A DNA stretch of 63,625 nucleotides, the filler included, from Stramenopiles sp. TOSAG23-6 (taxonomy: Eukaryota), in NCBI GenBank assembly GCA_900128565.1. It is 9 parts of 9 records of this genome, joined end to end, with 100 filler letters (N's around TTAATTAATTAA, not from the genome) between each part and the next. Parts side by side here need not be neighbours in the genome. Positions count along the whole stretch, not along the records: positions 26,333 to 34,991 come from LT636428.1; 8 more parts are not named here. One strand, written 5' to 3'. The translations under genes were made by a program, and so were the position numbers. Positions 8,796 to 61,227 of this stretch are shown here, in pieces; position 1 is the stretch's first letter, and each line of letters starts with the position of its first letter. The notes under the pieces were generated by a model. It saw nothing but the letters and a program-made list of their open reading frames with translations, was not told where the DNA came from and did no database searches.

Positions 8796-9677
8796 NTTTT
8801 CATACGAAATTTTGTACCTAACAAATTTTTTTAGATTTTTTTTTTGAAATATTTTTCCAAAATACATAAAGCATTTCTTATTGCTTGTGAGCGCGGAAAT
8901 TTACCTGTTTTAGAGTACTTATCGAAAGAAGGATTAGACCCAACACATACTGCCGTGAAAGATTCAATATTTAGATGTGTCAAGGGTTCAAAACAAATCA
9001 ATTCAATAGTACATATAAAAGGTAAACCAACAATGCAGGCCAATGTGTCTCCTAGTATCGTGCCCATGTATGTTTTATTTTTTTTTCAACAAAAAAATCG
9101 ATTTTTTTTTTTATAAAAATTTTGTACCTAACAAATTTTAGTTTTTTTTTTTGTAATATTTTTCCAAAATACAGTGTCCAATGGCTTCTTAAGAAAGGAC
9201 TTGATGTAAATGCTTGTCATGAAAAAGCTAACCCTAATGAAAAATATGCAGATTTCAAAATGAATGGTCTCACTCCATTACATATTGGATGTGCTAAAGG
9301 CGACTACGGAACAGTCAGGGTACTTGTTCAAGGAGGAGCTGATGTTAATGTATGTTTTTATTTTTTTTTTTTTTTACCGAAAAAAAAAAAAATCGAATTT
9401 TTTTTTTTTTGGTAAAAAAATTTTGTACCTAACAAATGTAGTAATGTACTAAAAAAAATATTTTTTCACAATACATGCTGTTGCTCAAAATAATGTCCTT
9501 CCGTTACACTGTGCTTTAGCCACAGTCCAGTCATCTAAAGAAAGATTTGCGAGAACATCAGGAAATATGGATGAAACTAATAAACAAATATTTGCTAGAT
9601 CAATAGCTATAAAGGAAAAAATTATTGAACTACTATTATCAAAAGGGGCGCGAAAATCCTGGAGAAGAGACATATAA
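8796..9677 (+). CDS. ankyrin-repeat protein, 5'-partial, multi-exon
   Basis: ACERGNLPVLEYL, GLTPLHIGCAKG..GADVN|AVAQNNVLPLHCA; introns 9068-9174 (GT-AG) and 9350-9476 (GT-AT) restore the frame. Confidence 0.8.
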
Positions 9678-13187: not shown

Positions 13188-14363
13188 ATGAAATGGTCAC
13201 GTTCGTTGTTTACAGTAGTATGTTCTTCATCAATGGCATTTTTATTAGTATTTCTCCGGAAGCGTAAACGAAACAATTTCATTATAAAAGAGAAGATTCA
13301 TAACTTTTCTATTGTTGTGCACGGGGGTGCGTGGGCAATCCCTGACAAAATTTCAGAGGCAACATTAAATGGTGTTAAACGAGCAGTAAATATAGGGTAT
13401 AGTATTTTAAACAGTGGGGGGACTGCTCTACAAGCTGTTGAAGCAGCAGTTCGAGAATTAGAGCTTAATCCTGTATTTGACGCCGGTGTTGGGTCTGTGT
13501 TGAATAACGAGGGTGCAGTTGAAATGGACGCTATGATAATGTGTGGCAAAACTCTTTCTACGGGCGCAGTTGCTGGAATCAGCAATGTACGCCATCCAGT
13601 CACTGTTGCACGACTAGTAAAGGAAAAAACAGACCACGTAATTTTTGTGGGTTCTGGAGCTGATCAACTCGCGAAGGAGCTCGGAGTAGAGACTGTCGAC
13701 CAATCAGTGCTTGTAACACCTGCTGCACGCATAGAATGGGAAACATTCAATAAATACAAAGCATCTGTTGGAGCTCTTTTCGATAATTCGACCTCAGTTG
13801 GTCACGATACAGTAGGTGCTGTTGCAATGGACAATTTTGGTCATCTTGCATGTGCGACAAGCACTGGAGGAATAACTGCAAAGAAAAAAGGTAGAGTTGG
13901 GGACTCTCCATTTGTAGGATGTGGTGGATACGCTCAAGATGGTGCAGGAGCTGTTTCTACAACTGGTCACGGTGAATCAATCATTAAAGTTGTTTTAGCT
14001 CATCGAATTATTGAAAGTCTTTCAAGCAATTACCCTAACCCTAACCCTGAAATTGTTCAAAGTGTTATTAAAAAAAATCTAGAATACATGAAGAGTAAAG
14101 TATCTGGGTATGGTGGTGCAATTGCAATAGATAGAAATGGTTTTGTGGGTATCTCGCATACCACCAAGCGTGTATGTTTTTATTACGAATATTTTTTTAT
14201 CGATTTTTTGTAAAATATTTTTTTCTAATTTTTTTTTCATAGAAAATTTTGTACCTAACGAGAAAAAAAATTAAAAAAATATTTTTTCACAATACCGATG
14301 GCTTGGGCAAAAGCAGAAAGTCGAACGGGTGGAAAAGTAAGCGGAGGTTTGAATATTAGATAG
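13188..14363 (+). CDS. ASRGL1: isoaspartyl peptidase / L-asparaginase (Ntn hydrolase), 2 exons
   Basis: IVVHGGAW, FDAGVGS, EMDA, HDTVGAVA, ATSTGG, GRVGDSP, STTGHGE; intron 14172-14297 gives HTTKR|MAWA. Confidence 0.92.
14172..14297 (+). other. non-canonical intron, GT-CG (126 nt)
   Basis: CGT|GTATGTTTT...TTTTGTACCTAAC...CACAATACCG|ATGGCTTGG; no in-frame AG available at the junction. Confidence 0.75.
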
Positions 14364-14385: not shown

Positions 14386-14475
14386 GTATGTTTTTTTTTT
14401 TCACTTTCGAATTTTTTTTTATAGTAAATTTTGTACCTAACGATTTTTCTTTTGAATTTTTTTTTCAAAGTACAT
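14386..14475 (+). other. same-family intron in 3' UTR, GT-AT (90 nt)
   Basis: Donor, branch motif and a divergent acceptor (TTTTTCAAAGTACAT) 22 nt after the ASRGL1 stop; no frame constraint available. Confidence 0.55.
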
Positions 14476-14682: not shown

Positions 14683-15832
14683 TTACTTTACCATACCGTT
14701 AGGCTTGCCCTTTGCTTGTTGAAGTATTACAATAATAGCAGTCATGTTGTCTTTCGATCCTAAGGCTAAGCATTTGTCTAATAATTTTTGAGGTACCATG
14801 TATTTTGGAACAATATTTCAAAAAAAAAAACTAAAATTTGTTAGGTACAAAATTTTTATAAAAAAAAAAATCGATTTTTTTGTAAAAAAAAAAAAATAAA
14901 AACATACATTTTCATTTCGGTTCCATTATTTATTTCAGCATTTAGAAATGATATACACTCTACATTAGTCATTACATCCCAAATGCCATCACACGCAATG
15001 ACTATGAATTTATCACTTGGTTGTCTTTTTACTGTGAGAACGTCGGGGATGTATTTTGGAAAAATATTTCAAAAAAAAAAATCTAAAAAAACTGTTAGGT
15101 ACAAAATTTCGTACGAAAAAAAAAATCAAATTTTCAAAAAAATAAAACATACATTGGTGAAACAGCTTGTGACTCAGGTTGTAAATCTGGTGCCTTGTAC
15201 ATAAAATCTCCGAGTGCTCGAGATACTGCCAAATCTCCATTCACGCGATTCATACTTACAGTTCCACCGGCTGCTACGATTCTTTTAGTTTCGATAGGGT
15301 TTTTTGGTTTATGGTCATACGAGAGGGGAAACGCATTTATTGTATTATCAGCATTTTGCCTACAAAGGACGGCACGAGAGTCGCCAACGTTGGCACAGAC
15401 AATATGGTCAGATGTTATATATGTTACACAAGCTGTTGTACCACTACAATCTGTACCAGTTTTTACACACGGTTGCTGTAAAAGCCATTTGTCCATAGAA
15501 ACCATCGTCTTTTCAAAAACAGTCGTGAAGACTTCTGGGGTAATTTCTGAGGAAGACTGGGGAGATTGGGTTTCTAGTATTTCACGTGTGGATATCTGAA
15601 ATTGACCTAATAAGCGTTTACCACTTTCCTTTGCAGCCCAATCCCCACCATGACCATCAAATACACCAAACATACAATTATTACCGTCTATACCAGTCTT
15701 GCAGATTTCTGCGTCTTCCATAGAAATCCGATAACCTTGCATTGAGGCTGAGGTAACATGAATTCCTCCCTCTGTATATATTTCTTCATGCACCTCCTTT
15801 GAAGTGATAGGCTTATCTAGAAAAGATCCCAT
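14683..15832 (-). CDS. protein phosphatase 2C (PPM family), 3 exons
   Basis: MGSFLDKP, SMQGYRISMEDA, VFDGHGG, ANVGDSR, LAVSRALGD, ACDGIWDV, GSKDNMTA; GT-AT introns 15049-15152 and 14798-14907. Confidence 0.95.
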
Positions 15833-22093: not shown

Positions 22094-23023
22094 TCATAAA
22101 GGATAAATTTCAGGATCTGTATCATCAATATCAATTTTTCCAGTATACCTTTCATTATTTCCATTAAAAGGATTATTATGTTGTCCAGTAAAGCATTGAA
22201 TTGCATCATCTGAGTTTGGATTCAAGGGATATCCATCATTATCTTCATCATAAGCTGAACAAAACTGACCATTATGCATACATTTGTATACCTTTCCATC
22301 TGCATCTTTTTTTGTAGCACCAGGATAAATTTCAGGATCTGTATCATCAAAATCATCCATTCCATCATAGCCCACAAGTGATGTTCCAGCAGTATCAACA
22401 CCACCATCACCAGAAAGACATTTACTACTTTCTGATGTATCTTCAGGGAATCCATCATTATCATTATCAATGAAGTTGCAAAACTGACCAGTATACATAA
22501 TTTTGTACACACATGTTTCATCAGCAGACATGGCTGCTGCTGCTGCTGTTTTTGCTGCTGCTGCTGCTGTTTCTGTTGTTGTTGTTGCTGCTGCTGCTGC
22601 CACTGTTGCTGTTGTTGTTGCTACTGCTGCCCATGTTGTTGCTGCTGCTGCTGCTGCTGTTTTTACTGCTGCTGCTGCCACTGCTGCTGCCACTGCTGCT
22701 GTTTCTGCTTTTACTGCCTGTGCTGCCACTGCTGCTGTTTGTGCTACTGTTGCTGCTAATGCTACTGATAATGTTCTTTTTGCTGCTGCTGCTGTTTCTG
22801 TTTCTGTTGGTGTTGGTGTTGCTGCTGTTGCTGCTGCTGCTGTTGCTGCTTCTGTTGCTGTTGTTGCTGCTGCTGTTGCTGTTACTGTTGCTGCTGCTGC
22901 TGCTGTTTCTGTTGCTGTTGTTGCTGCTACTGCTGCTGTTGCTGCTGTTGCTGTTGCCAGTGCTGCCATTTTTGCTGCTCTTGCTGCTGCTGCTGCTGTT
23001 TCTGTTTCTGTTTCTGTTGCTCT

Positions 23024-23067
<44 letters not shown>

Positions 23068-23404
23068 TTGCTGTTTTTNCTGCTGCTGTTGCTGTTGCTG
23101 TTGTTGCTGCTGCTGCTGCTGCCACTGTTGCTGTTGTTGCTGCTGTTTTTGTTTTTGTTTCTGTTGCTGTTGTTGCTGCTGCTGCTGTTGTTGTTGTTGT
23201 TGTTGCTGCTGCTGTTTCTGTTTCTGTTGCTGCTGTTTCTGTTTCTGTTGCTGCTGTTTTTGCTGCTGCTGCCACTGTTTCTGTTTCTGTTGCTGCTGTT
23301 GCTGTTTCTGTTGCTGCTGTTGCTGCTTTCACTGTTGCTGTTTTTACTACTGCTGCTGCTGCTGCTGCTGCCCCTGATAGTGTTTTTGCTGCTGCTGCTG
23401 CTGC

Positions 23405-23454
<50 letters not shown>

Positions 23455-23529
23455 TTTTTACTGCTTCTGCTTCTGCTGCTTCTGCTGCTGTTTTTGCTAA
23501 TGTTGCTTCTGCTGCCGCTGTTGCTGTTT

Positions 23530-23560
<31 letters not shown>

Positions 23561-26076
23561 CTCTGGTGCTGTTGTTGCTGTTGTTGCTGCCGCTGAGGCT
23601 GCTGTTGCTGCTGCTGCCACTGCTGTTGTTGTTGCTGCTGCTGCTGCAGCTTCTTCAAGATAACAAGCATTGCCTGACAAAATAGAATGTTTTAGAGCTC
23701 GCGGATGAACCTGTGGGTCATTATCGTCAAAATCAGGAGTTATGATAACATCATCAGCACTAACATGTAAGATGGAATTATGAATCGAAACTGTTTTACA
23801 TGCATTAGATGCATTAGATGTAAACTGCACATGTATTTTGGAAAAATATTTCAAAAAAAATTCTAAAAGTTTTTTGTTAGGTACAAAATTTCGTATGAAA
23901 CCAAAAAAAAAAAACTTCAAATTTTCAAAAACAAATAAAACATACATAACCATCATTATCATTGTCTACAACATTGGAACTTTTGCATGCAATACAAGAA
24001 TCTACAAGAGTATATGTTCTAAATATGGTAAAAGGGTGGATAGTATCCTTATTATCATCACAGTCGCATAAACCTGTATAGGGCGCTTCATGTATTTTGG
24101 AAAAATATTTCAAAAAAAAAACACTTAAATTTGTTAGGTACAAAATTTTCAAAAAAAAAAAAATCGAATTTGAAAAAAACTGAAACATACAATCTTATTG
24201 TTATCAAAAACTTGTATTTTTGGTTCAGTTGTGGCATCTTCTTCTTCTTCTGTTGTTGTTGTTCCAGTTGTTGTTGTTGTTGCTTCTTCTGGTGTTGATA
24301 TAATAATAAGACATTTAATATCTTCATTTGGACACCCAGAGTAACCTTTATAAGGTAGTGAATCCAATTCTTTTTTATTTGGATAACCGTCATTATCTAC
24401 ATCAATTTGTTGAGATGGTAAAGTTCTACAAAACGAACCATTTGCTAAACATTTATAACAATGTTCTTTACATTCTGAAATATCCTCAATTCTTTTGACA
24501 AAATATTTAGGTTCAACTTCTTCGTCTGATTTAACAATCACCATTTGGTTGCTTCCAGGATATATAAACGGATCATTATCATCACAATCATACTTACCAT
24601 GGTACCTTGTTTGCTGTTGTTGAGGATTACCACACGCATTTATTGTGAAAAAGAATCGTTTGTTTTTGTAAAAAAAATGTTAGGTACGAAATTTCGTACG
24701 AAAAAAAAATCACTATGAACATTTTGTATTTTGAATATGCAATTTTCATAGTAAAAAAAATATAAATTCATGAAAAAAAACCAAAAAAAACAAAATATAA
24801 ATGTAAAACATGTATACAATAAATGATGAAAACAAACATATGGGTTATTATGAGTTGGATTGCGATGAGGATATCCATGTATTTTGGAAAAATATTTCAA
24901 AAAAAAATCTTAAAAAAGTTGTTAGGTACAAAATTTTTTTACCAAAAAAAAAAAAATTCACCCAAAAAAAAAATAAAACATACATCGTTATCAACGTCGT
25001 CTAATGCACATACTTGTCCATTTGCCATACATTTATACACGTCACAACTTGCTTCTGTCTTCTTCTTTTGTACACCGTCTTCTTCTTTTTCTCCACAATC
25101 AGTGATACTAGATGAATCGCAATCTTCTCTTGCCAAGAATTTTGTAAATGCTGCTACGTTTAATTTTGCCTCGACTTTAAAGTAACAAATATCACCACAA
25201 CATGTACAACCACATTGACCATCTTTTGTTATATCAATTGTACCATCGCAGTCATTATCAATATGGATTTTAGGAAAATATTTCAAAAAAAAAAAAAAAA
25301 AATCGTTAGGTACAAAATTTCGTATGAAAAAAAAAATCGAAATTGAAATCAAAACGTACTTTATCACCACATATTTCTTCTGCATCTGGATGAATATCTT
25401 TATCTTTGTCATCACAATCTTGAACAACAGGTAAATCTTCTTTTTTATAACCATCACAATCTTCATCATTTGTTTTTGTAGTTGTATATGTATTTTGAAA
25501 AAATATTTGAAAGAAAAAAAACTTACATTTGTTAGGTACAAAATTTTTATAAAAAACAAAAAACAAAAATTCAAGTTTGAAAAAACATAAAACATACATG
25601 GATTTTGATCATCACAATCAAAATCTTCTTCAGGACCCGTATACTTTGTCAATGTATATTCTTCCCATATATTTTGAAAAATATTTTTTTTTAAATATTT
25701 TTGTTAGGTACAACATTTCGTACGAAAAAAAAAANTGNAANTGNAAANTAATAAAATATACATGGATAATGAATTCCTTCATCTGTTGAAGTAGGAAGCA
25801 TGACGACACATGCTTTATCGCCTTGTTCTACATGTATTGTGAATTTATTTATTTATTTATTTTTTTGTTAGGTACAAAATTTCGTATGAAAAAAAAGTTT
25901 TTAAAAAAATTAAAAAAAAAAAAAAAAAAAAACATACAAATTCATCTCCATCATGATCTAAACAAAATTGATCATTATCCATACAACGATAATATTTACG
26001 TCGCAAATTATTGTATTGAAAATGTATTTAGGAAAAATATTTCACATTTTTACAGTTTTTACAAATTTGTTAGATA

Positions 26077-26340: not shown

Positions 26341-26456
26341 ACTGGGAGATTCGCAATCATTCGAACAATTCTTTCGCCTTTTACTAAAGAATTCCGTGGT
26401 TACGAATTGCTAATCCCACTGATCCCAATGTTTGGATATACAAACTCTCACGAGTT
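26341..26456 (+). ncRNA. U5: U5 spliceosomal snRNA
   Basis: Invariant loop 1 GCCTTTTAC (26376-26384) closed by an 8-bp stem AATTCTTT/AAAGAATT, then CCG, Sm-like AATGTTTGG (26427-26435) and 3' hairpin AACTC-TCAC-GAGTT. Confidence 0.92.
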
Positions 26457-26460
26457 ACTG

Positions 26461-26662
26461 ATACCTTCTCGGCCTTTTGGCTAAGATCAAGTGTAGTATC
26501 TGTTCTTATTAGAGTGAAATCTAATATTCAGGTCATAGACCTGTAATTTTTCACACTAATTTTTCTAGGATCGATATGGGCGAGCAGTCGTTTACGATAG
26601 CCCCCTAATCAAGCTTGTCTTTTGCATTGCACTATCGCTCTGTGACGAGCGCCCGAAAGGGC
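26461..26662 (+). ncRNA. U2: U2 spliceosomal snRNA
   Basis: ATACCTTCTCGGCCTTTTGGCTAAGATCAAGTGTAGTATCTGTTCTT 5' end, branch-pairing GTAGTA (26493-26498), stems IIa/IIb, Sm site AATTTTTC, loop IV ATTGCAC; an extra GCCC-GAAA-GGGC hairpin at 26651-26662 may lie outside the mature RNA. Confidence 0.97.
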
Positions 26663-26680
26663 ATCTGTTTTTCCTTCTCA

Positions 26681-26839
26681 AAACGTACATGGAGTGATTT
26701 GGAGGTGGTCAATATGGCCTCTAAATCCGAGTGAAGCAAGACCTGATCACTTTGGTTGTTTGTAAAGCTCGGTGCTGCTCTTCGGAGTATGCGGATTCTC
26801 AATTTTTTGTAGGGCTCTGCAGCGCGTGCGCTCTTAGCC
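26681..26839 (+). ncRNA. U1: variant U1 snRNA with altered 5'-splice-site recognition sequence
   Basis: 5' AAACGTACATGG (9/12 identical to ATACTTACCTGG); SL-I 11-bp stem with 10-nt loop GGTCAATATG (cf. GATCACGAAG); SL-II loop TGATCACTTT (cf. ATTGCACTYY); SL-III with UUCG; closing helix GAGT/ATTC; Sm site AATTTTTTG (26801-26809); terminal stem GGCT..AGCC. Confidence 0.88.
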
Positions 26840-26845
26840 ATCTGT

Positions 26846-26980
26846 ATCTTTGCGCTTGGGGCATTACCTTTACCATTGACGTTCGCTGAGGTTGGGTTAT
26901 TGCTAGTTGAAAACTACATTCCAAGTTCATGGTTCTTCCTAGTGTTGAACCTAATTTCTCAAACGTCTCTCACGAGATAC
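26846..26980 (+). ncRNA. U4: U4 spliceosomal snRNA
   Basis: 5' ATCTTTGCGCTTGGGGCA (U6 stem II partner), TGAG k-turn element, TTGCTAGTTGAAAACT (stem I), Sm-like AATTTCT, 3' hairpin TCTC-TCAC-GAGA. Confidence 0.92.
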
Positions 26981-26982
26981 TG

Positions 26983-27040
26983 ATGCCAATTACCTTTATG
27001 GTGTTGTGCTAAGATTTGTGTTTCTTAATTTCTAAGGAAA
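26983..27040 (+). ncRNA. candidate small Sm-site RNA of unknown class
   Basis: Starts after the same ACTG spacer as U2; hairpin, then ATTTGTG (27014-27020), then hairpin TTTCTTA/TAAGGAA. Structure by eye only. Confidence 0.35.
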
Positions 27041-28816: not shown

Positions 28817-28922
28817 ATGTATTGTGAAAAAATATTTCAAAAAAAAAAAAAANTTAAATTTGTTAGGTACAAAATTTCGTACGATAAAAAAAACTTCGAA
28901 TTTGAAAAAAAATAAAACATAC

Positions 28923-42309: not shown

Positions 42310-43650
42310 ATGTCCAGAACATCTATTTGGACAATCAATCATGCTACAATCATCACCAACGAATGGCGGTCGACATTGACAACTACCAAATCCATCACAT
42401 ATCCCATGTGATTCTCCTTTATTTGTTGCTGAACATTCACTTTTTCGTTGTGTATATTCATAATATTGTGCAACATCAAGATCAAAACGTCCTGTCAAGG
42501 AATCATACATTTTTTTACCAGAACTACAACAATGATTGCACTTATGCTCTTGAGAATATTCATCATAATAACAAAAGTCACCTGGGCATGTTGTATTACT
42601 ACAATCTGAACCATAATAACCATCATTACAATAACAATAGCCTAATTTACATTCACCATGTAGTTTGGAAAAATATTTCAAAAAAAATTTAAAAAAATTT
42701 GTTAGGTACAAAATTGTTTTACCAAAAAAAAAAAATTAAACTCGAAATTGAAAAAAAATAAAACGTACATGCAATGAACAATTATGTGGACAAATATTCG
42801 TGTTATACTGCCATAAATCTCCCATTATTGTAAAATCAATAGTACGATTAAATAATGTATTGTGAAAAATATTTCAAAAAAAAAACTAAAATTTGTTAGG
42901 TACGAAATTTCGTATGAAAAAAATCAATTTCAAAATTTAAAAAGAAAATGAAAACGTACAAGGTATCGTTGGTTCTTTTACTGCTATTCCTCCAAACATC
43001 ATTATGATCTCATATTGTGCAGAATATACAGATTTCATATTCCATCGTTGTTCTGGTTGTTTATATAATAATTTAAACGGTAAATCATTTCGTTTATCAG
43101 CACGATCTCGACATCCATCCCAACCAGCTCTTTGTCGTCGTGGCTGATGGATAAACACATCTTTCCCACCACTTATATCAGTCAAATTCCAACCTCTTGT
43201 AGGTTGACCCCACACTGACATTGATGTTAATCTATCTTTTTCTCCAGCCATACATGTATTATGAAAAAATATTATTATTATTTTTTACAGTTAGGTATAC
43301 AATGTTAACCTTAATACAATTTTTTGAAAAAAAAAATCGTTAGGTACAAAATTTCGTACGAAAAAAAAAATTGAAAAATAAAAATAAAACATACATGTAT
43401 CATCCCAGCAGCTATATAAATCCAAATCATTATCACATTTTGTGACACCTTCAAGTCTAGCACGTTCAAGACAACAATTTATTTTGGAAAAATATTTCAA
43501 AAAAAAAAAACTTAAATCTGTTAGGTACAAAATTTTTATAAAAAAAAAAATTCGATTTTTTTGTAAAAAAATAAAACATACATCGCCTACATCAGCGACA
43601 ATACCTGGAGTATCTGGATCTTTTTTACAACAAGGATGAAATGTGAACAA
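42310..43650 (-). CDS. EGF-like / kelch-type extracellular protein, internal exons
   Basis: IMMFGG, CPHNCSLH|GECKLGYCYCNDGYYGSDCS, GICDGFGSCQCRPPFVGDDCS..CPNRCSGH; GT-AT intron 42658-42768. Confidence 0.75.
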
Positions 43651-43878: not shown

Positions 43879-44627
43879 TGAAAAAAAAATAAAACATACC
43901 AATCTCGCTTTTAGGTAATGGGCGAGTTGTGTCAGTTAACCAAGGAGATGGCAAAACTGAAAAGAAAAAACTAACAACGGCGGTGAGAAGTAAAAAATCG
44001 ATGGCATTCGGACTTGAGGATGGGACGTGTAAAAAGGAAATCATTAATTGTGTTAATATACCACCGCTTGCTCCAACCCATATATAATGAACGTGATATG
44101 TTGTAATGTAAGCTACAAATGAATAAAAAGTGACAAAAAGTTGAGTAGGACAATAGTCTAATAAATAATACATACGCCTTAACAATACCAATGACAATAC
44201 CACTATTCCCAGGGAAATTTTTGACAGGTGTTGTATATACGGCGCATGCAACGCCTGCATTTCCAAGTTGACTTATACAAGCAAAGAACGTTAAAACAAA
44301 CGTAGGACCAACTGGCCACGAATCAATGGCTATTACTTTTCGTGCGACAGCCCATTCTAAAAATAAGAAAATAGATTGGATAACACCACCCCAACAACAT
44401 GACATAGCTGGACCATATTTATCCATGAATCCTCCAATCACAAAATTAAAAAATCCACCCAACAACTGCCAAGTTCCTATCGTGTCTATTTCAGAGGATA
44501 ATAGATCAAAGTTTCCTCTAATCGCTAATGAGTATACACCGAAAGCATAAGCTGATCCAGTTACTGCAGCGCCCCATATTGAAACAACTAACGACGCCCA
44601 TCTTGGATGAACCTGCTTAAATAGCAT
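43879..44627 (-). CDS. nodulin-like MFS transporter, N-terminal exons
   Basis: GSAYAFGVYS, GGFMDKYGP, KNFPGNSGIVIGIVKA|WVGASGGI; intron 44082-44175. Confidence 0.8.
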
Positions 44628-52593: not shown

Positions 52594-54799
52594 ACGAAAT
52601 TTTGTACCTAACGATTTTTTTTTGAAATATTTTTCCAAAATACATGAACATTGTGGTGCTGTTATTGGAATTGATCTCATCACAAATAAAGTCTGTTTTT
52701 TTTCTGACTGTGGTGGAATTAGTCCTAACCTTTACAAAAGTAAAAATTCTAAACATTCTACAAAATGTAATACAAAATGTAATACAAAATCTAAAAGTCG
52801 TATTAAATGTCAATCACTCATACGAAAATGTAAACAAGTCAAAGGTGGTATGCTTTGTGATGAACCAGGTTTAGGCAAAACTATTACAATACTTGCTTTA
52901 ATACTACGCTCTGTTGGTCGGTATGCTGTGACACCTCGTCGATGTCCAATTTATTTTTCACAAAATGTGGAAAATGGGTCAAGAAGAGATCAACGAAGAG
53001 TTTGTGCAATGAGTAAATTGATACATTTAGATTCTAATTTACTTCAATCATTCACAACATTAATCATTGTTCCACCACCACTTATTGAACATTGGGCGAA
53101 TCAAATGAAAGAGCATGTTGATTGGCGATATGTAAACTATACAAATAAAAGTAAAAACACGAAAAACACTAAAAAGACTAAAAAAAAAAACATTGTGTTT
53201 CAAAATCGCATTGACCGTGAAAAACATGAAAAAGAATTAGCGTTTCAAGCATCGGTGTATATTGACGATGGTAAATCTAATATACCTGATCCAGAAACTC
53301 TTGCATCCTATACAATTGTTCTTACCTCTTTACAACGTATGAGCACTGAGCAAATGAAGCAAGATCGATCAAAGAGATTGAGAGAGGAAGTAGACAACTC
53401 TAGTTATAGCAGTATCGATGATACAGTAGAATGTTATGTATCACCATTTTGTAGATTACGATGGCTTCGTATTGTTGTTGATGAAGGACATAAAGTGGCT
53501 TCAAATTGCTCATCGATGACTGTCTTTGTAATGTCGCTCACGAAAGAACGCACATGTATGTTTTCAGTATGATTTTTTTTTGAAATTTTTTTTCATACGA
53601 AATTTCGTACCTAACAAAATTTTAAATTTTTTTGAAATATTTTTTCACAGTTCATGGGTCATGACTGGAACTCCAACAAAAGAAATAGATGATACTACGG
53701 CCTTAAAAAATCTACTTGGATTATTACAATTTATCCGACACGATCCATTCGGTCGATTTTATCCATCTAGATTGTGTGGTGAGAATGATATTTCTAGTAG
53801 TCTAAATTCTTCTTCATTTTCCACTTTAGGATGTGACCTTTGGCGTCGATTAGTCTCAAAACCATTATTGGCTGGTCGACAAGATGGTTTTATTCGTTGT
53901 CAGCGTGTAATGCAATCATTGATGGTACGTCACACGAAAGCGGATGTTCCTGATATACCCATTCCTATTCGACGGAATCATTATATTACATTGAATCCAA
54001 ATGAGTTACATGATTATAATACAAGAGTCGCATTTACACGTACAAATATTTTAATGACTGTACGACCCGCTGATGGATATGTACAACCTGAATCTTTACT
54101 AAATCCATCAAATTCAAGAGATGCACGTAATAATATAAGAGCAATTCAATTAATGTGTTGTGGTGGAGGACGACAAATCCCATCGATTACAGATTCAAAT
54201 AGAGAATCGACTAAAACTATGATGATGTCCGTACCATGTTGGAAATTGGGAGATGGAAAAGATCATTCAAAATGTGCTCGAGGTCAATTGGGTGCATCTG
54301 ATGGACACTGGTGTCGACATTATAAAATCGAAAAAAAAGGTTTACTTTCGATTGATAATAGAAAAATGAATGGTTTGGGATGTACTGAGCGTGTACGTCT
54401 TTTGCATTACAATTTTAAATTATATTTTTTTTTTTTTGTATGAAATTCCATACCTAACAAATGTTTTTTTAATATTTTTTTCATACTACATGAATGGCAA
54501 CGAGTAGATGATTTCATTGGTAGGGCCATTACAGGTGATGATAGTGTATGTGGCATGTGTGGAATTAAAGTTCAGTTATTACTTGTCACGCCTTGCTCCC
54601 ATTTATTTTGTGTGGATTGTATCCAGAGAAGTTTTTGGGAATGTCAATTATGTAAAAACATTCATCTTTTTGAAGATCTTCAAGTTTTACAACCTGGTTT
54701 TGAATTGAATTGGGCAGAGACTAAATCAGAAAGCTTGGCAAGAAGAAAGGAATTATTTAATCAAAGGCGAATGCTTCAACAACAGAGAGTTGATTCCAA

Positions 54800-54837
<38 letters not shown>

Positions 54838-56708
54838 ACATAGAAAGTGAATATAATGATATGGAAACAAATATTGTTACGTCAATGAGTATCTCACAAG
54901 GTATGGCAACGCAAGGAGGTTCTAAAGCCAAATATTTATGTGAAAGGATTAAATCCTTGAGAGAAAATGATACTCGACAATTACGAAGATTAATGCGTAG
55001 GAAATCTCAGTGTGTATGTTTTCAAAAAATGATTTTTATTTTCGTACAAAATTGTATACCTAACAATTTTTTTTTTATTTTTTTTTATTTTTTTACATCT
55101 AACAAAAACATTGTACTATAGAAATATTTCTTCACAATACATGGTGAAAATAATGGTAAAAAAATAGAATTTTCTCCTTGTAAGATTATTGTATACAGCC
55201 AATGGCGTAAAGTATTAAATCTTGTAGGTAATGATTTAATCCATACTTTTGGTCAAGATGCTGTTGCTGAGTTTTATGGTAAATATCGTAGTGAAGAAAT
55301 GCATAAATTTAGATATAATGAACAAAGAGAATGGATATGCAAATATTGTAAATATAATAATCTTTCTGCTGACTCTTGTTGTCAAAATAGTTATTTACTG
55401 GTTAAATTTGAAATTGCTACCGAAACGACTACAAATACAAATACAATGGGTAATACTCCAAGACACATTGATGACTCTTTGAATTCGTTTTGGTCTGGAT
55501 GGGAAGAAAATTGTATTGGATTACCTGATAAACCACCATATAACAAAAGAAAACGAACTGTAGAACATTCTGAAGGGTATAGATACATGTGGATATATTC
55601 TGTAAATGTTGATAATTATTCTCTAGGTCAAAGGTACAACATTGGTGATGTTATTGTAACTTTTGGAAGGCCTGGTATTGTTGTGGACAGATCTCATTGT
55701 GGTTGTAATCAACTTCAAGCAACTCATAGATCTCGACGTGTTGATTGCTCTGTGATGCTTCTCGGCTCAGATGGAAGTCTTGGACTTGATCTTTCCTTTG
55801 TAACTCATATATTTCTACTTGATAAAATATGGGCATTTGATTTGGAACAACAAGTCGTTGCACGTGCCCATCGTATGGGAGCTGTACAACCTGTAATTGT
55901 AGAACAATTAATTGCTCGTGGAACGATTGAAGAATTAATGATGTCAATGGGTTCTCGCAATCATGTTTCAGATTCAAAGAATGAACAAGGAATGATGATT
56001 GATGACAAAAAAAACGAAAATTGGAAATGTATGCTATGTGACCTTGAACTAAATAAGAAAATTGCACCTGCTGGACATTTGTGTCTTGCATGTCTCGCAG
56101 AGCGTGAAAAATTGACAACACCAACAGTGGGTAAAGTTCGGAAAAGAGTTCCAAGTCGAAATGACATACATCTTGGTTTAGCTACAAAAAAACGTAAGAG
56201 TGGAAACCGTCGTCGTATTCTTCGTGGAACTGCTGTTGAAGATCATGCAAAAACAATTTATATTTTAAATAATATTTCATTACTCCGAAGACATTTATTG
56301 AGAGATGATAAAGAGGTAGAACGTATACATAATAATAATAATAATCATAATAATAATAATAATAATAATCATTATAATCATTATAATAATAACGAGACTG
56401 GTCATGAGGATGTAGATAAAAATGTTACAAATCAATATAATATGACACACAATCAAAATAATATTGATGTTTTAAATAATAAAAAAGTCCGTTTGGATAC
56501 AAATAGTGGACGGAAGACTCAGGAAATTCGCAATTCGTTAGGTACAAAATCTAGTACGAAAAAACAAAAATCAATTTCAGTTTTGCCAAGTGTCAACCCT
56601 CTAGGTGTTTGGTACTGTAGGAGTGGGTGTGGGAAATTTTTTCAAGATGAAAATGGTGAAATTAAACATTATAATAGGAGGTTTAAATATTGTTCCTCAT
56701 TTAAATAG
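52594..56708 (+). CDS. SNF2/Rad5-like helicase with internal RING finger, 5'-partial
   Basis: GGMLCDEPGLGKT, RIVVDEGH, T|WVMTGTP, CGMC..TPCSHLFCVDC, KIIVYSQW, GLDLSF, EQQVVARAHRMG; GT-AT introns 53556-53655, 54393-54491, 55014-55142 all restore the frame. Confidence 0.92.
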
Positions 56709-58256: not shown

Positions 58257-58704
58257 GTTGAAGCTCAGCGGAATACGTTTTCTCTCTCATAAAACTCTGT
58301 CTGTCTCTCTCTTGGCCACTGGCAGGTGTGGTTCGACCAGATCCTTGGATGCTAAACACTGAACAACGTAACGAATGTTTAGTTGTATTAAGTATTTACT
58401 TATGATGATTAAGTTAACACAAAGCCAATCGATCCAATATCATATTGGTTGGCCGAATTCTGTCATCAGGATGAGTGGTCAGAACAAAAAATAATTAAAA
58501 CCTCCGTCGACCACCCACGATACCCGGTCCACAAACGTATCAGTGCTTCTTAGTTGAATAATTGGTCAGCTGACTAAGGAACTACCTACTATAACCATGT
58601 TGTTGTTGTTCGTTTTGGTGTGTGCACAATAATCAGTAAACAAATTGGCACAATACTACGTATAAGTAATTACTCTCATAACAAAATGATACGGTTTATA
58701 TTAT

Positions 58705-58983
58705 GTACAATGTTTTTGTTAGATGTAAAAAAATAAAAAAAAATAAAAAAAAAATTGTTAGGTATACAATTTTGTACGAAAATAAAAATCATTTTTTGAA
58801 AACATACACACTGAGATTTCCTACGCATTAATCTTCGTAATTGTCGAGTATCATTTTCTCTCAAGGATTTAATCCTTTCACATAAATATTTGGCTTTAGA
58901 ACCTCCTTGCGTTGCCATACCTTGTGAGATACTCATTGACGTAACAATATTTGTTTCCATATCATTATATTCACTTTCTATGT

Positions 58984-59021
<38 letters not shown>

Positions 59022-61227
59022 TTGGAATCAACTCTCTGTTGTTGAAGCATTCGCCTTTGATTAAATAATTCCTTTCTTCTTGCCAAGCTTTCTGATTTAG
59101 TCTCTGCCCAATTCAATTCAAAACCAGGTTGTAAAACTTGAAGATCTTCAAAAAGATGAATGTTTTTACATAATTGACATTCCCAAAAACTTCTCTGGAT
59201 ACAATCCACACAAAATAAATGGGAGCAAGGCGTGACAAGTAATAACTGAACTTTAATTCCACACATGCCACATACACTATCATCACCTGTAATGGCCCTA
59301 CCAATGAAATCATCTACTCGTTGCCATTCATGTAGTATGAAAAAAATATTAAAAAAACATTTGTTAGGTATGGAATTTCATACAAAAAAAAAAAAATATA
59401 ATTTAAAATTGTAATGCAAAAGACGTACACGCTCAGTACATCCCAAACCATTCATTTTTCTATTATCAATCGAAAGTAAACCTTTTTTTTCGATTTTATA
59501 ATGTCGACACCAGTGTCCATCAGATGCACCCAATTGACCTCGAGCACATTTTGAATGATCTTTTCCATCTCCCAATTTCCAACATGGTACGGACATCATC
59601 ATAGTTTTAGTCGATTCTCTATTTGAATCTGTAATCGATGGGATTTGTCGTCCTCCACCACAACACATTAATTGAATTGCTCTTATATTATTACGTGCAT
59701 CTCTTGAATTTGATGGATTTAGTAAAGATTCAGGTTGTACATATCCATCAGCGGGTCGTACAGTCATTAAAATATTTGTACGTGTAAATGCGACTCTTGT
59801 ATTATAATCATGTAACTCATTTGGATTCAATGTAATATAATGATTCCGTCGAATAGGAATGGGTATATCAGGAACATCCGCTTTCGTGTGACGTACCATC
59901 AATGATTGCATTACACGCTGACAACGAATAAAACCATCTTGTCGACCAGCCAATAATGGTTTTGAGACTAATCGACGCCAAAGGTCACATCCTAAAGTGG
60001 AAAATGAAGAAGAATTTAGACTACTAGAAATATCATTCTCACCACACAATCTAGATGGATAAAATCGACCGAATGGATCGTGTCGGATAAATTGTAATAA
60101 TCCAAGTAGATTTTTTAAGGCCGTAGTATCATCTATTTCTTTTGTTGGAGTTCCAGTCATGACCCATGAACTGTGAAAAAATATTTCAAAAAAATTTAAA
60201 ATTTTGTTAGGTACGAAATTTCGTATGAAAAAAAATTTCAAAAAAAAATCATACTGAAAACATACATGTGCGTTCTTTCGTGAGCGACATTACAAAGACA
60301 GTCATCGATGAGCAATTTGAAGCCACTTTATGTCCTTCATCAACAACAATACGAAGCCATCGTAATCTACAAAATGGTGATACATAACATTCTACTGTAT
60401 CATCGATACTGCTATAACTAGAGTTGTCTACTTCCTCTCTCAATCTCTTTGATCGATCTTGCTTCATTTGCTCAGTGCTCATACGTTGTAAAGAGGTAAG
60501 AACAATTGTATAGGATGCAAGAGTTTCTGGATCAGGTATATTAGATTTACCATCGTCAATATACACCGATGCTTGAAACGCTAATTCTTTTTCATGTTTT
60601 TCACGGTCAATGCGATTTTGAAACACAATGTTTTTTTTTTTAGTCTTTTTAGTGTTTTTCGTGTTTTTACTTTTATTTGTATAGTTTACATATCGCCAAT
60701 CAACATGCTCTTTCATTTGATTCGCCCAATGTTCAATAAGTGGTGGTGGAACAATGATTAATGTTGTGAATGATTGAAGTAAATTAGAATCTAAATGTAT
60801 CAATTTACTCATTGCACAAACTCTTCGTTGATCTCTTCTTGACCCATTTTCCACATTTTGTGAAAAATAAATTGGACATCGACGAGGTGTCACAGCATAC
60901 CGACCAACAGAGCGTAGTATTAAAGCAAGTATTGTAATAGTTTTGCCTAAACCTGGTTCATCACAAAGCATACCACCTTTGACTTGTTTACATTTTCGTA
61001 TGAGTGATTGACATTTAATACGACTTTTAGATTTTGTATTACATTTTGTATTACATTTTGTAGAATGTTTAGAATTTTTACTTTTGTAAAGGTTAGGACT
61101 AATTCCACCACAGTCAGAAAAAAAACAGACTTTATTTGTGATGAGATCAATTCCAATAACAGCACCACAATGTTCATGTATTTTGGAAAAATATTTCAAA
61201 AAAAAATCGTTAGGTACAAAATTTCGT
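58705..61227 (-). repeat. apparently exact 2523-nt inverted copy of 52594-55116 (truncated SNF2 gene)
   Basis: Identical ORF translations on opposite strands; coordinate sums match (113821); identity stops inside an intron. Confidence 0.95.

Follow-up and report, generated by a model that had tools for sequence, protein, structure and literature searches.

The 63,625-nucleotide (nt) stretch of DNA from Stramenopiles sp. TOSAG23-6 analyzed here (the window) consists of short contigs strung together by 100-nt linkers. One contig carries four spliceosomal small nuclear RNA (snRNA) genes, U5, U2, U1 and U4, placed head to tail on one strand with spacers of 2, 23 and 5 nt. The third of these, a U1 gene at 26681-26840 on the plus strand, is the subject of this report: its single-stranded 5' end is complementary to the 5' splice sites (donors) of the introns found locally, and is itself three positions off the standard U1 5' end ACUUACCU. 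An earlier note on this DNA had placed a variant U1 between U2 and U4; the placing is right, but the U5 gene upstream (26341-26458) had been overlooked.

The locus matches the Rfam U1 family (RF00003) from model position 1 to 166 with 54.1 bits in a covariance-model alignment (E = 1.5e-12 for a 901-nt stretch, 1e-10 for the whole window against 4227 Rfam families). The score lies below the Rfam gathering score of 69.5, and the locus is for that reason absent from a gathering-threshold scan. It is the sole U1 match in the 63.6-kb window, to which the U1 searches extended, and an all-family Rfam scan of the window gave no U6, U11 or U12 at E <= 1. Rfam retains the best member of the U1/U11 clan per locus, and here this is U1, with an alignment that spans its whole model; at this locus, the comparison with U11 suggested in the earlier note favors U1.

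Under the constraint that the Sm site and the 11 nt at the 5' end stay unpaired, the RNA folds at -48.5 kcal/mol with helix H, stem-loops (SL) I-III, the Sm site and SL IV all formed. The succession of a four-way junction (H, SL I, SL II and SL III), the Sm site and SL IV is present in both the Rfam structure line and the constrained fold, and the architecture described previously is thereby confirmed. Within the loop of SL I the constrained fold adds two pairs (28-35 and 29-34), unlike the Rfam alignment. Both loops at which U1 proteins would be expected to bind are diverged, as had been remarked before: the SL I loop GGUCAAUAUG, at the U1-70K position, agrees with the consensus GAUCAaGAAG at seven of ten positions, and the SL II loop, at the U1A position, has UGAU in place of the AUUG of AUUGCAC, with CAC retained. 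Compared with the Rfam family as a whole, the helices and Sm site are thus alike, whereas both loops have diverged and three substitutions fall in the near-invariant first 11 nt. The first 12 nt read AAACGUACAUGG against the Rfam consensus AUACUUACCUGG and differ at positions 2, 5 and 9. The alignment posteriors across the 5' end are maximal (grade "asterisk"), and the substitutions are the U2A, U5G and C9A listed in the earlier note. One further A (26680) lies immediately 5' of the match.

It is hardly credible that the gene is not U1, being instead a U11-like or other Sm-class RNA, or a product of single-cell amplification or assembly. The score below gathering could be read in this way, as could a window made of short contigs with linkers and at least one probable chimera. 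Against this, U1 is the best clan member and aligns from one end of its model to the other, neither U11 and U12 nor any other family scores at E <= 1 at the locus, and random chimeras would not yield an unbroken row of four complete snRNAs in the same orientation.

Loop I of U5, the branch-point recognition sequence of U2 and the 5' region of U4 are canonical, leaving the U1 5' end as the sole functional snRNA motif seen to differ. The tight spacing of the genes suggests one precursor or internal promoters for the array, and no end-to-end snRNA array was found in the literature on polycistronic spliceosomal snRNAs, among the matches listed. As for smaller features of the array, U5 and U4 share a 21-nt end motif (26445-26465 and 26967-26987, 90% alike), and CATCTGT lies 3' of both U2 and U1. 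A decayed U2 copy 3' of U4 was considered and rejected, as the alignment only covers the shared 21-nt end motif. The contig starts at 26333, 8 nt before U5, and further genes may lie upstream.

The repeated intron family and its splice register

One short element, GTAYGTTTTATTTTTTT..CGTACGAAATTTTGTACCTAAC..T-run..GAAATATTTTTCCAAAATACAT, is repeated in nearly every gene of the window. A profile built from 10 copies (110 positions) gives 68 nhmmer matches at E <= 0.01 in 63.6 kb, a number that takes in partial matches, split copies and copies on an inverted duplicate contig. The family introns have a median length of 104 nt (range 90-185, n = 37) and a GC content of 17.5%, and the intron density in the window is ~0.8 per kb. 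The best open frames continue from one side of the element to the other in 18 of the 21 strong cases, defined by long, unambiguous open frames on both sides, and in 29 of 37 cases overall, against a chance expectation of 1/3 (P = 1.1e-6 for the strong set). The strong cases that fail are 18182, where a stop is the first downstream codon in the GT register, 42309, and 28922, where the flanking open reading frames (ORFs) look like unrelated proteins and which is probably an assembly chimera joined within an intron copy. Over some junctions splicing restores conserved residues, such as the Trp codon before TGTP at 53556, a motif that we take to be that of SNF2-type proteins.

From 47 unique donors the consensus is (C)AT/GTAYGTTTT, in which the slash marks the exon-intron boundary. 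The counts per position are C 19, T 13, A 12 and G 3 at -3; A 34 at -2; T 38 at -1; G 47 at +1; T 45 at +2; A 43 at +3; T 32 and C 14 at +4; G 47 at +5; T 47 at +6; T 46 at both +7 and +8; and T 45 at +9. Three copies on the inverted duplicate contig, the later-found donor at 44175 and seven copies with N or unplaced by frame (GTATN, GTAAGT, GTTTGT, GTATAT, GCACGT, GTACAT and GTGTAT) are left out of this matrix. The six donors cited in the earlier note (7691, 9068, 9350, 15152, 42768 and 53556) all exist as described there.

The termini of the element are mirror-like (CATGTAT.../...ATACATG), and the reverse-complemented 3' consensus (CATGTATTTTGG) is similar to the 5' end (CATGTATGTTTT); no empty site and no autonomous element was seen. 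AT flanks the element at both ends, with A at -2 and T at -1 in 34 and 38 of the 47 donors and AT as the 3' end of 40 of 46 introns. The AT flanks could stem from the duplication of 2 bp within a CATG target, and the element looks like a miniature inverted-repeat transposable element (MITE). No relatives of the family were found in genome contigs or in viral contigs. The family is so repetitive that contigs end inside intron copies (8797, 17466, 35091, 43745/43845, 52494/52594, 61228 and 61328).

As CATG flanks both ends in most copies, the cut could lie at GT...AT or at AT...AC, and the protein sequences at two introns are informative on this register. At the 14172 junction, the GT register places Arg before the Met-x-Trp of asparaginases; the motif is present in 115 of 120 asparaginase homologs, which have Arg in 106 of the 115 and Pro in none (0/115). 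At the 44175 junction, it gives Ala followed by Trp-Val-Gly, and the corresponding residue is A, G, S or T in all 21 homologs and Ile in none, these 21 having been chosen among the top 40 of 150 listed as the rows that reach the query end and continue past it. The AT-AC register, 2 nt upstream, is rejected, since it needs Pro at 14172 and Ile at 44175 and would rest on the less conserved dinucleotide (A 34/47 and T 38/47 at -2 and -1, against G 47/47 and T 45/47 at +1 and +2). The use of an upstream AG as the 3' site is rejected as well, as it would presumably insert ~11 residues, variable in length, at junctions that are tight in the homologs. Reading frames and protein junctions together thus place the removal of the elements in the GT register, and the GTAYGT register, which had been named beforehand as a point on which the proposal could fail, holds at both informative introns.

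The 3' ends of 46 unique introns are AT in 40 cases, AG in two, and CG, CT, AC and GT in one each, with AT for example at 15049 (minus strand), 42658 (minus strand) and 53655 (plus strand), and at the 3' boundary the family has ..AAAATACAT/G. Since the two protein junctions fix the GT register, the family introns would be GT-AT introns of the major type. Among the literature matches listed, available in part, GT-AT occurs only for rare non-canonical or U12-type splice sites. Two public protein models that are evidently of the same organism (P0002 and P0121) translate through the introns at 14172-14297 and 44082-44175, and in one of the two an internal stretch of 28 residues is missing that an exon in the window encodes. 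Since the models translate through introns, the gene sets of this lineage probably miss the intron class and are probably systematically wrong, which is of practical importance. The closest protein models bear a source label suggestive of MAST-3 marine stramenopiles, a hint to the group.

Within each copy lies TTTGTACCTAAC (for example 15105-15125, minus strand), the CTAAC of which would fit the canonical GUAGUA of U2 if its A bulges out; this A lies at a median distance of 41.5 nt from the 3' end. On the upstream side there is a palindrome, TTTCGTACGAAA, that contains a second donor-like GTACG. CGTACG is often CATACG and GTACGT often GTATGT, as CpG decay would give. The element is found in an untranslated region too, as the copy at 14386-14475 (plus strand) lies past the asparaginase stop codon. 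Introns of a minor spliceosome, with ATATCC or GTATCC donors and a branch site 10-26 nt from the 3' end, together with U11 at the snRNA locus, were considered and rejected, in view of U1 as the best clan member, the GTAYGTTTT donors and the 41.5-nt distance.

Fit of the U1 5' end to the family donors

Paired in register with the 47 donors, the U1 at 26681-26840 matches on average 10.19 of 11 positions (9.06 by Watson-Crick pairs), compared to 7.47 for the consensus U1, and the mean duplex energies are -9.43 and -2.01 kcal/mol, respectively. All 47 donors pair better with this U1, 18 of them at all 11 positions. Single reversion of any of the three changes costs 0.8-1.0 pairs, and only 3 of the 4455 possible triple substitutions of the consensus U1 pair better. 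A9 faces the T at -1 (38/47), G5 the T or C at +4 (46/47) and A2 the T at +7 (46/47), so that each change turns a mismatch with the local donor consensus into a pair, while the eight positions that were already paired are unchanged. The target CAU/GUAYGUUU predicted in the earlier note from the three changes corresponds to the donor consensus. The word ATGTAYGTTT occurs 25 times in the window, with 0.78 occurrences expected and none of 100 shuffles reaching that number; the occurrences include one in antisense to U1 and one on the duplicated contig. The canonical target AGGTAAGTAT with at most one mismatch is not enriched in the window (7 against 3.75 expected).

We consider it probable that 26681-26840 encodes a functional U1 co-adapted to the donors of the MITE-like intron family. 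The changed 5' end (U2A, U5G and C9A) would allow pairing over 11 nt, or 12 nt if the RNA starts at 26680, with CAU/GUAYGUUU(U), the 5' end of the intron family to which practically every intron observed in the window belongs. G5 would form a G-C pair with GUACGU (14/47 donors) and a G.U pair with GUAUGU (32/47), A2 and A1 would read the U run at +7 and +8, A9 the U at -1, which is the last base of the flanking AT repeat, and the unchanged U10 and G11 the A at -2 and the C at -3. Splicing would take out the element with one AT and leave the other, and the donor would be fixed by the element (GUAYGUUUU) plus the retained AT (-2 A and -1 U). Because one amplified element made the donors uniform, U1 could presumably change without losing its substrates, and U1 would in that case have followed the introns. 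The RNA would presumably be made, capped and used, and the variant would be the main or only U1 of the cell.

Several observations weigh against this interpretation. Apart from the score below gathering, the free fold of the U1 RNA has a z of only -1.8 relative to shuffles, and in the unconstrained minimum-energy fold some of the 5' end is base-paired. Relatives of this U1, which would give covariation support or date the changes, were not found: a degenerate U1 pattern, with canonical, variant or intermediate 5' ends and the SL I loop, had one match in metagenome contigs and none in viral contigs, and a pattern restricted to the variant had none in genome contigs. The single metagenome match was rejected as a chance match in coding-like sequence, and it has no Rfam match. 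The spacers of 2-23 nt leave no space for a separate upstream promoter from which a capped 5' end could arise. The 47 donors all derive from a single repeat family and agree mostly through shared descent, so that the enrichment of ATGTAYGTTT measures the repeat and not 47 independent selections. Lastly, the assembly is fragmented, with breaks or joins inside intron copies, frames that are not continuous at 28922 and an inverted duplicate, and local arrangement needs caution. The co-evolution suggested in the earlier note is upheld in that each change restores pairing; it has to be amended in that the donors form one MITE-like family and are not independent, and the origin of the -1 T and the AT 3' ends had been overlooked.

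The antisense of U1 nt 1-10 is ATGTACGTTT, a donor word, which together with the score below gathering and the two protein-binding loops off consensus raises the question of a non-functional pseudogene or decaying copy, whose 5' end drifted and matches the donors by coincidence or through an antisense patch from an intron end. We regard this as very improbable: no helix is broken and both the Sm site and SL IV are preserved, the adjoining U5, U2 and U4 are well conserved, and the changes hit exactly the three donor-mismatched positions in the right direction, with a fit that only 3 of the 4455 triple substitutions exceed. The hidden Markov model of the intron family has no match at the U1 locus, and the likeness of the U1 5' end to the element ends after ~13 nt. 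The more specific idea that the U1 5' end is an inserted intron fragment is rejected on account of that missing match.

A specialized second U1, with a canonical U1 elsewhere in the genome for ordinary introns and the variant reserved for the repeated family, seems unlikely to us. In Physarum, variant and standard U1 genes are reported to occur together (cited in 10.1101/2022.06.08.495308, available in part), the U1 search was limited to the window, so that other U1 genes may be present in the genome, and a few family donors depart from GTAYGT (GTAAGT, GTGAGT, GTTTGT, GCACGT and GAACGT). On the other hand, no intron class that needs a canonical U1 was found in the window, where every definable intron is a family member or a decayed copy, although non-family introns were not systematically searched for; the canonical target is not enriched there, and the U1 sits in what appears to be the main snRNA array, with U5, U2 and U4.

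Beyond a U1 co-adapted to the family donors, the observations can be joined, tentatively and with some doubt about the whole, into a single account. A MITE-like element may have become the near-sole source of introns, and the spliceosome may have been rebuilt accordingly: U1 would have been rewritten at three positions for 11-12 nt of pairing with the terminal repeat and the flanking AT, the mirror-image 3' end would have made AT the normal 3' splice site of a GT-AT genome of the major type, and U5, U2, U1 and U4 would be encoded end to end as if in one precursor.

Modified U1 sequences and introners in other lineages

Few RNA sequences of eukaryotes are as conserved as the first 10 nt of U1. 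In the available parts of two sources (10.1101/2022.06.08.495308; PMC13326754), the reported exceptions at the U1 5' end are limited to three amoebozoan lineages, and the prevailing idea for these cases is that U1 can co-evolve with donors after introns have become few. In Entamoeba, U1 carries AACAAAC, for GUUUGUU donors (Roy & Bowser, 10.1101/2022.06.08.495308). Like the U1 described here, its 5' end is fully complementary to the atypical donor of the lineage, its architecture is kept while the loops have diverged, and an additional A carries the pairing on to +7, which is the role of A2 in the present U1. In contrast to the stramenopile case, Entamoeba belongs to the Amoebozoa, has ACAAAC where this U1 has ACGUAC and is intron-poor (against ~0.8 introns per kb here), and the available part of the report gives neither a pairing change at exon position -1 nor a link to a transposon-like intron family.

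The candidate U1 of Mastigamoeba balamuthi has ACGUAC, with GUGCGC donors (10.1101/2022.06.08.495308). The core is identical to that of the present U1, including the change of U5 to G opposite a pyrimidine at +4. Extended pairing is not part of the Mastigamoeba case as described, whereas here the donors are GUAYGUUUU and the changes at 2 and 9 lengthen the duplex on both sides. In Physarum polycephalum, a U1 with ACAUAC occurs beside standard copies (cited in 10.1101/2022.06.08.495308). This is likewise a compensatory change opposite +4 of GUAUGU donors, but with A rather than G at that position and with standard and modified U1 coexisting.

In some other lineages the donors depart from GUAAGU and U1 is unchanged. 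Saccharomycotina, Giardia and Trichomonas have GUAUGU donors and still retain ACUUAC in U1 (10.1101/2022.06.08.495308), and in Fritillaria borealis, in which 95% of the introns are non-GT/AG, the U1 5' end is strictly preserved (PMC13326754). In all four cases the donors are off GUAAGU and ACUUAC is kept, whereas it is changed here. Relative to the known cases, in so far as the available parts of these sources describe them, the present one would be new in its major lineage, in the intron-dense DNA, in the pairing change at exon position -1 and in the transposon-like intron family.

Several of these features recall a known group of introns. Introner elements are introns derived from MITEs and occur in Micromonas, Aureococcus and other organisms. 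Like the family described here they consist of many near-identical short introns with inverted-repeat-like termini, a flanking repeat that is kept once after splicing and a splice site at the element edge; unlike introners, this family has a 3' end of AT instead of AG. In literature that treats both introners and U1 snRNA, no changed U1 tied to introners was found among the matches listed, which were available in part, and no introners turned up in the literature on marine stramenopiles (MAST) or stramenopiles among the matches listed. The main text of the MAST single-cell genome paper (PMC5778133) leaves splice sites and snRNAs unmentioned and refers to introns only in passing, and that of the Incisomonas paper (PMC12614181) mentions neither introns and splicing nor snRNAs and introners. 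Thus, neither the family introns nor this U1 is described in the main texts of the MAST papers checked, the supplements of which may carry intron statistics.

If the wider account of a rebuilt spliceosome is true, the most conserved RNA-RNA contact of splicing can become free to evolve through the uniformity of introns after a transposon burst, and not through their scarcity. If the co-adaptation of U1 to the family donors is true, introner biology would be tied to snRNA evolution, as a rare case of splicing machinery that follows its introns, and the organism would be a natural test case for the extent of pairing between U1 and the 5' splice site that a spliceosome tolerates. The same kind of U1 change, with the ACGUAC core described for Mastigamoeba in the part of that source available, would have arisen in a lineage not related to that one and in DNA rich in introns.

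Feature coordinates and assembly context

The positions of the snRNA genes, the parts of U1 and selected family introns are collected in Table 1. Gene names given for the introns at 15049, 44082 and 53556 are our presumed readings of the translations.

Table 1. The snRNA array, the parts of the U1 RNA and selected introns of the repeated family (nt numbers count from the first base of the U1 gene).
Feature	Position	Strand	Remarks
U5 snRNA	26341..26458	+	RF00020, 76.8 bits; first gene of the array; canonical loop I
U2 snRNA	26461..26657	+	RF00004, 138.8 bits; canonical branch-point recognition sequence GUAGUA
U1 snRNA gene	26681..26840	+	RF00003 match and cloverleaf fold; start possibly one A upstream, at 26680
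U1 5' splice-site recognition sequence AAACGUACAUG	26681..26691	+	Changes at nt 2, 5 and 9 relative to consensus
U1 helix H	nt 12-14/118-120 of gene	+	Constrained fold
U1 SL I	26696..26727 (nt 16-47)	+	11-bp stem, 10-nt loop in Rfam alignment; U1-70K loop position
U1 SL II	26728..26771 (nt 48-91)	+	Loop UGAUCACUUU; U1A loop position; Rfam alignment and fold
U1 SL III	26773..26793 (nt 93-113)	+	UUCG loop; constrained fold
U1 Sm site AAUUUUUUG	26801..26809 (nt 121-129)	+	Rfam alignment and fold
U1 SL IV	26813..26839 (nt 133-159)	+	Rfam alignment and fold
U4 snRNA	26846..26977	+	RF00015, 76.0 bits; 5 nt past the U1 end; canonical 5' region
Family intron	9068..9174	+	Donor CAT/GTATGTTTT, 11/11 positions pairable with U1; 3' end AG
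Family intron, asparaginase gene	14172..14297	+	Donor CGT/GTATGTTTT; 3' end CG; register-informative
Family intron, presumed PP2C-like gene	15049..15152	-	Donor AAT/GTATGTTTT; 3' end AT
Family intron	42658..42768	-	Donor CAT/GTACGTTTT, all Watson-Crick to U1 nt 1-11; 3' end AT
Diverged family intron, presumed MFS/nodulin-like gene	44082..44175	-	Donor GGC/GTATGTATT; 3' end AT; register-informative
Family intron, presumed SNF2-type helicase gene	53556..53655	+	Splicing restores Trp codon before TGTP

The inverted duplicate comprises 52594-56708 (plus strand) and 58676-61227 (minus strand), where the ORFs recur on the opposite strand, with identical translations in two pairs and a third pair that differs at one end. 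It is probably an amplification or assembly artefact, and its introns were counted once. Elsewhere in the window, 22094-23965 holds a long, low-complexity ORF rich in Ala and Thr, the composition of which produces weak, spurious Rfam matches to isrG (20-36 bits, where the gathering score is 100).

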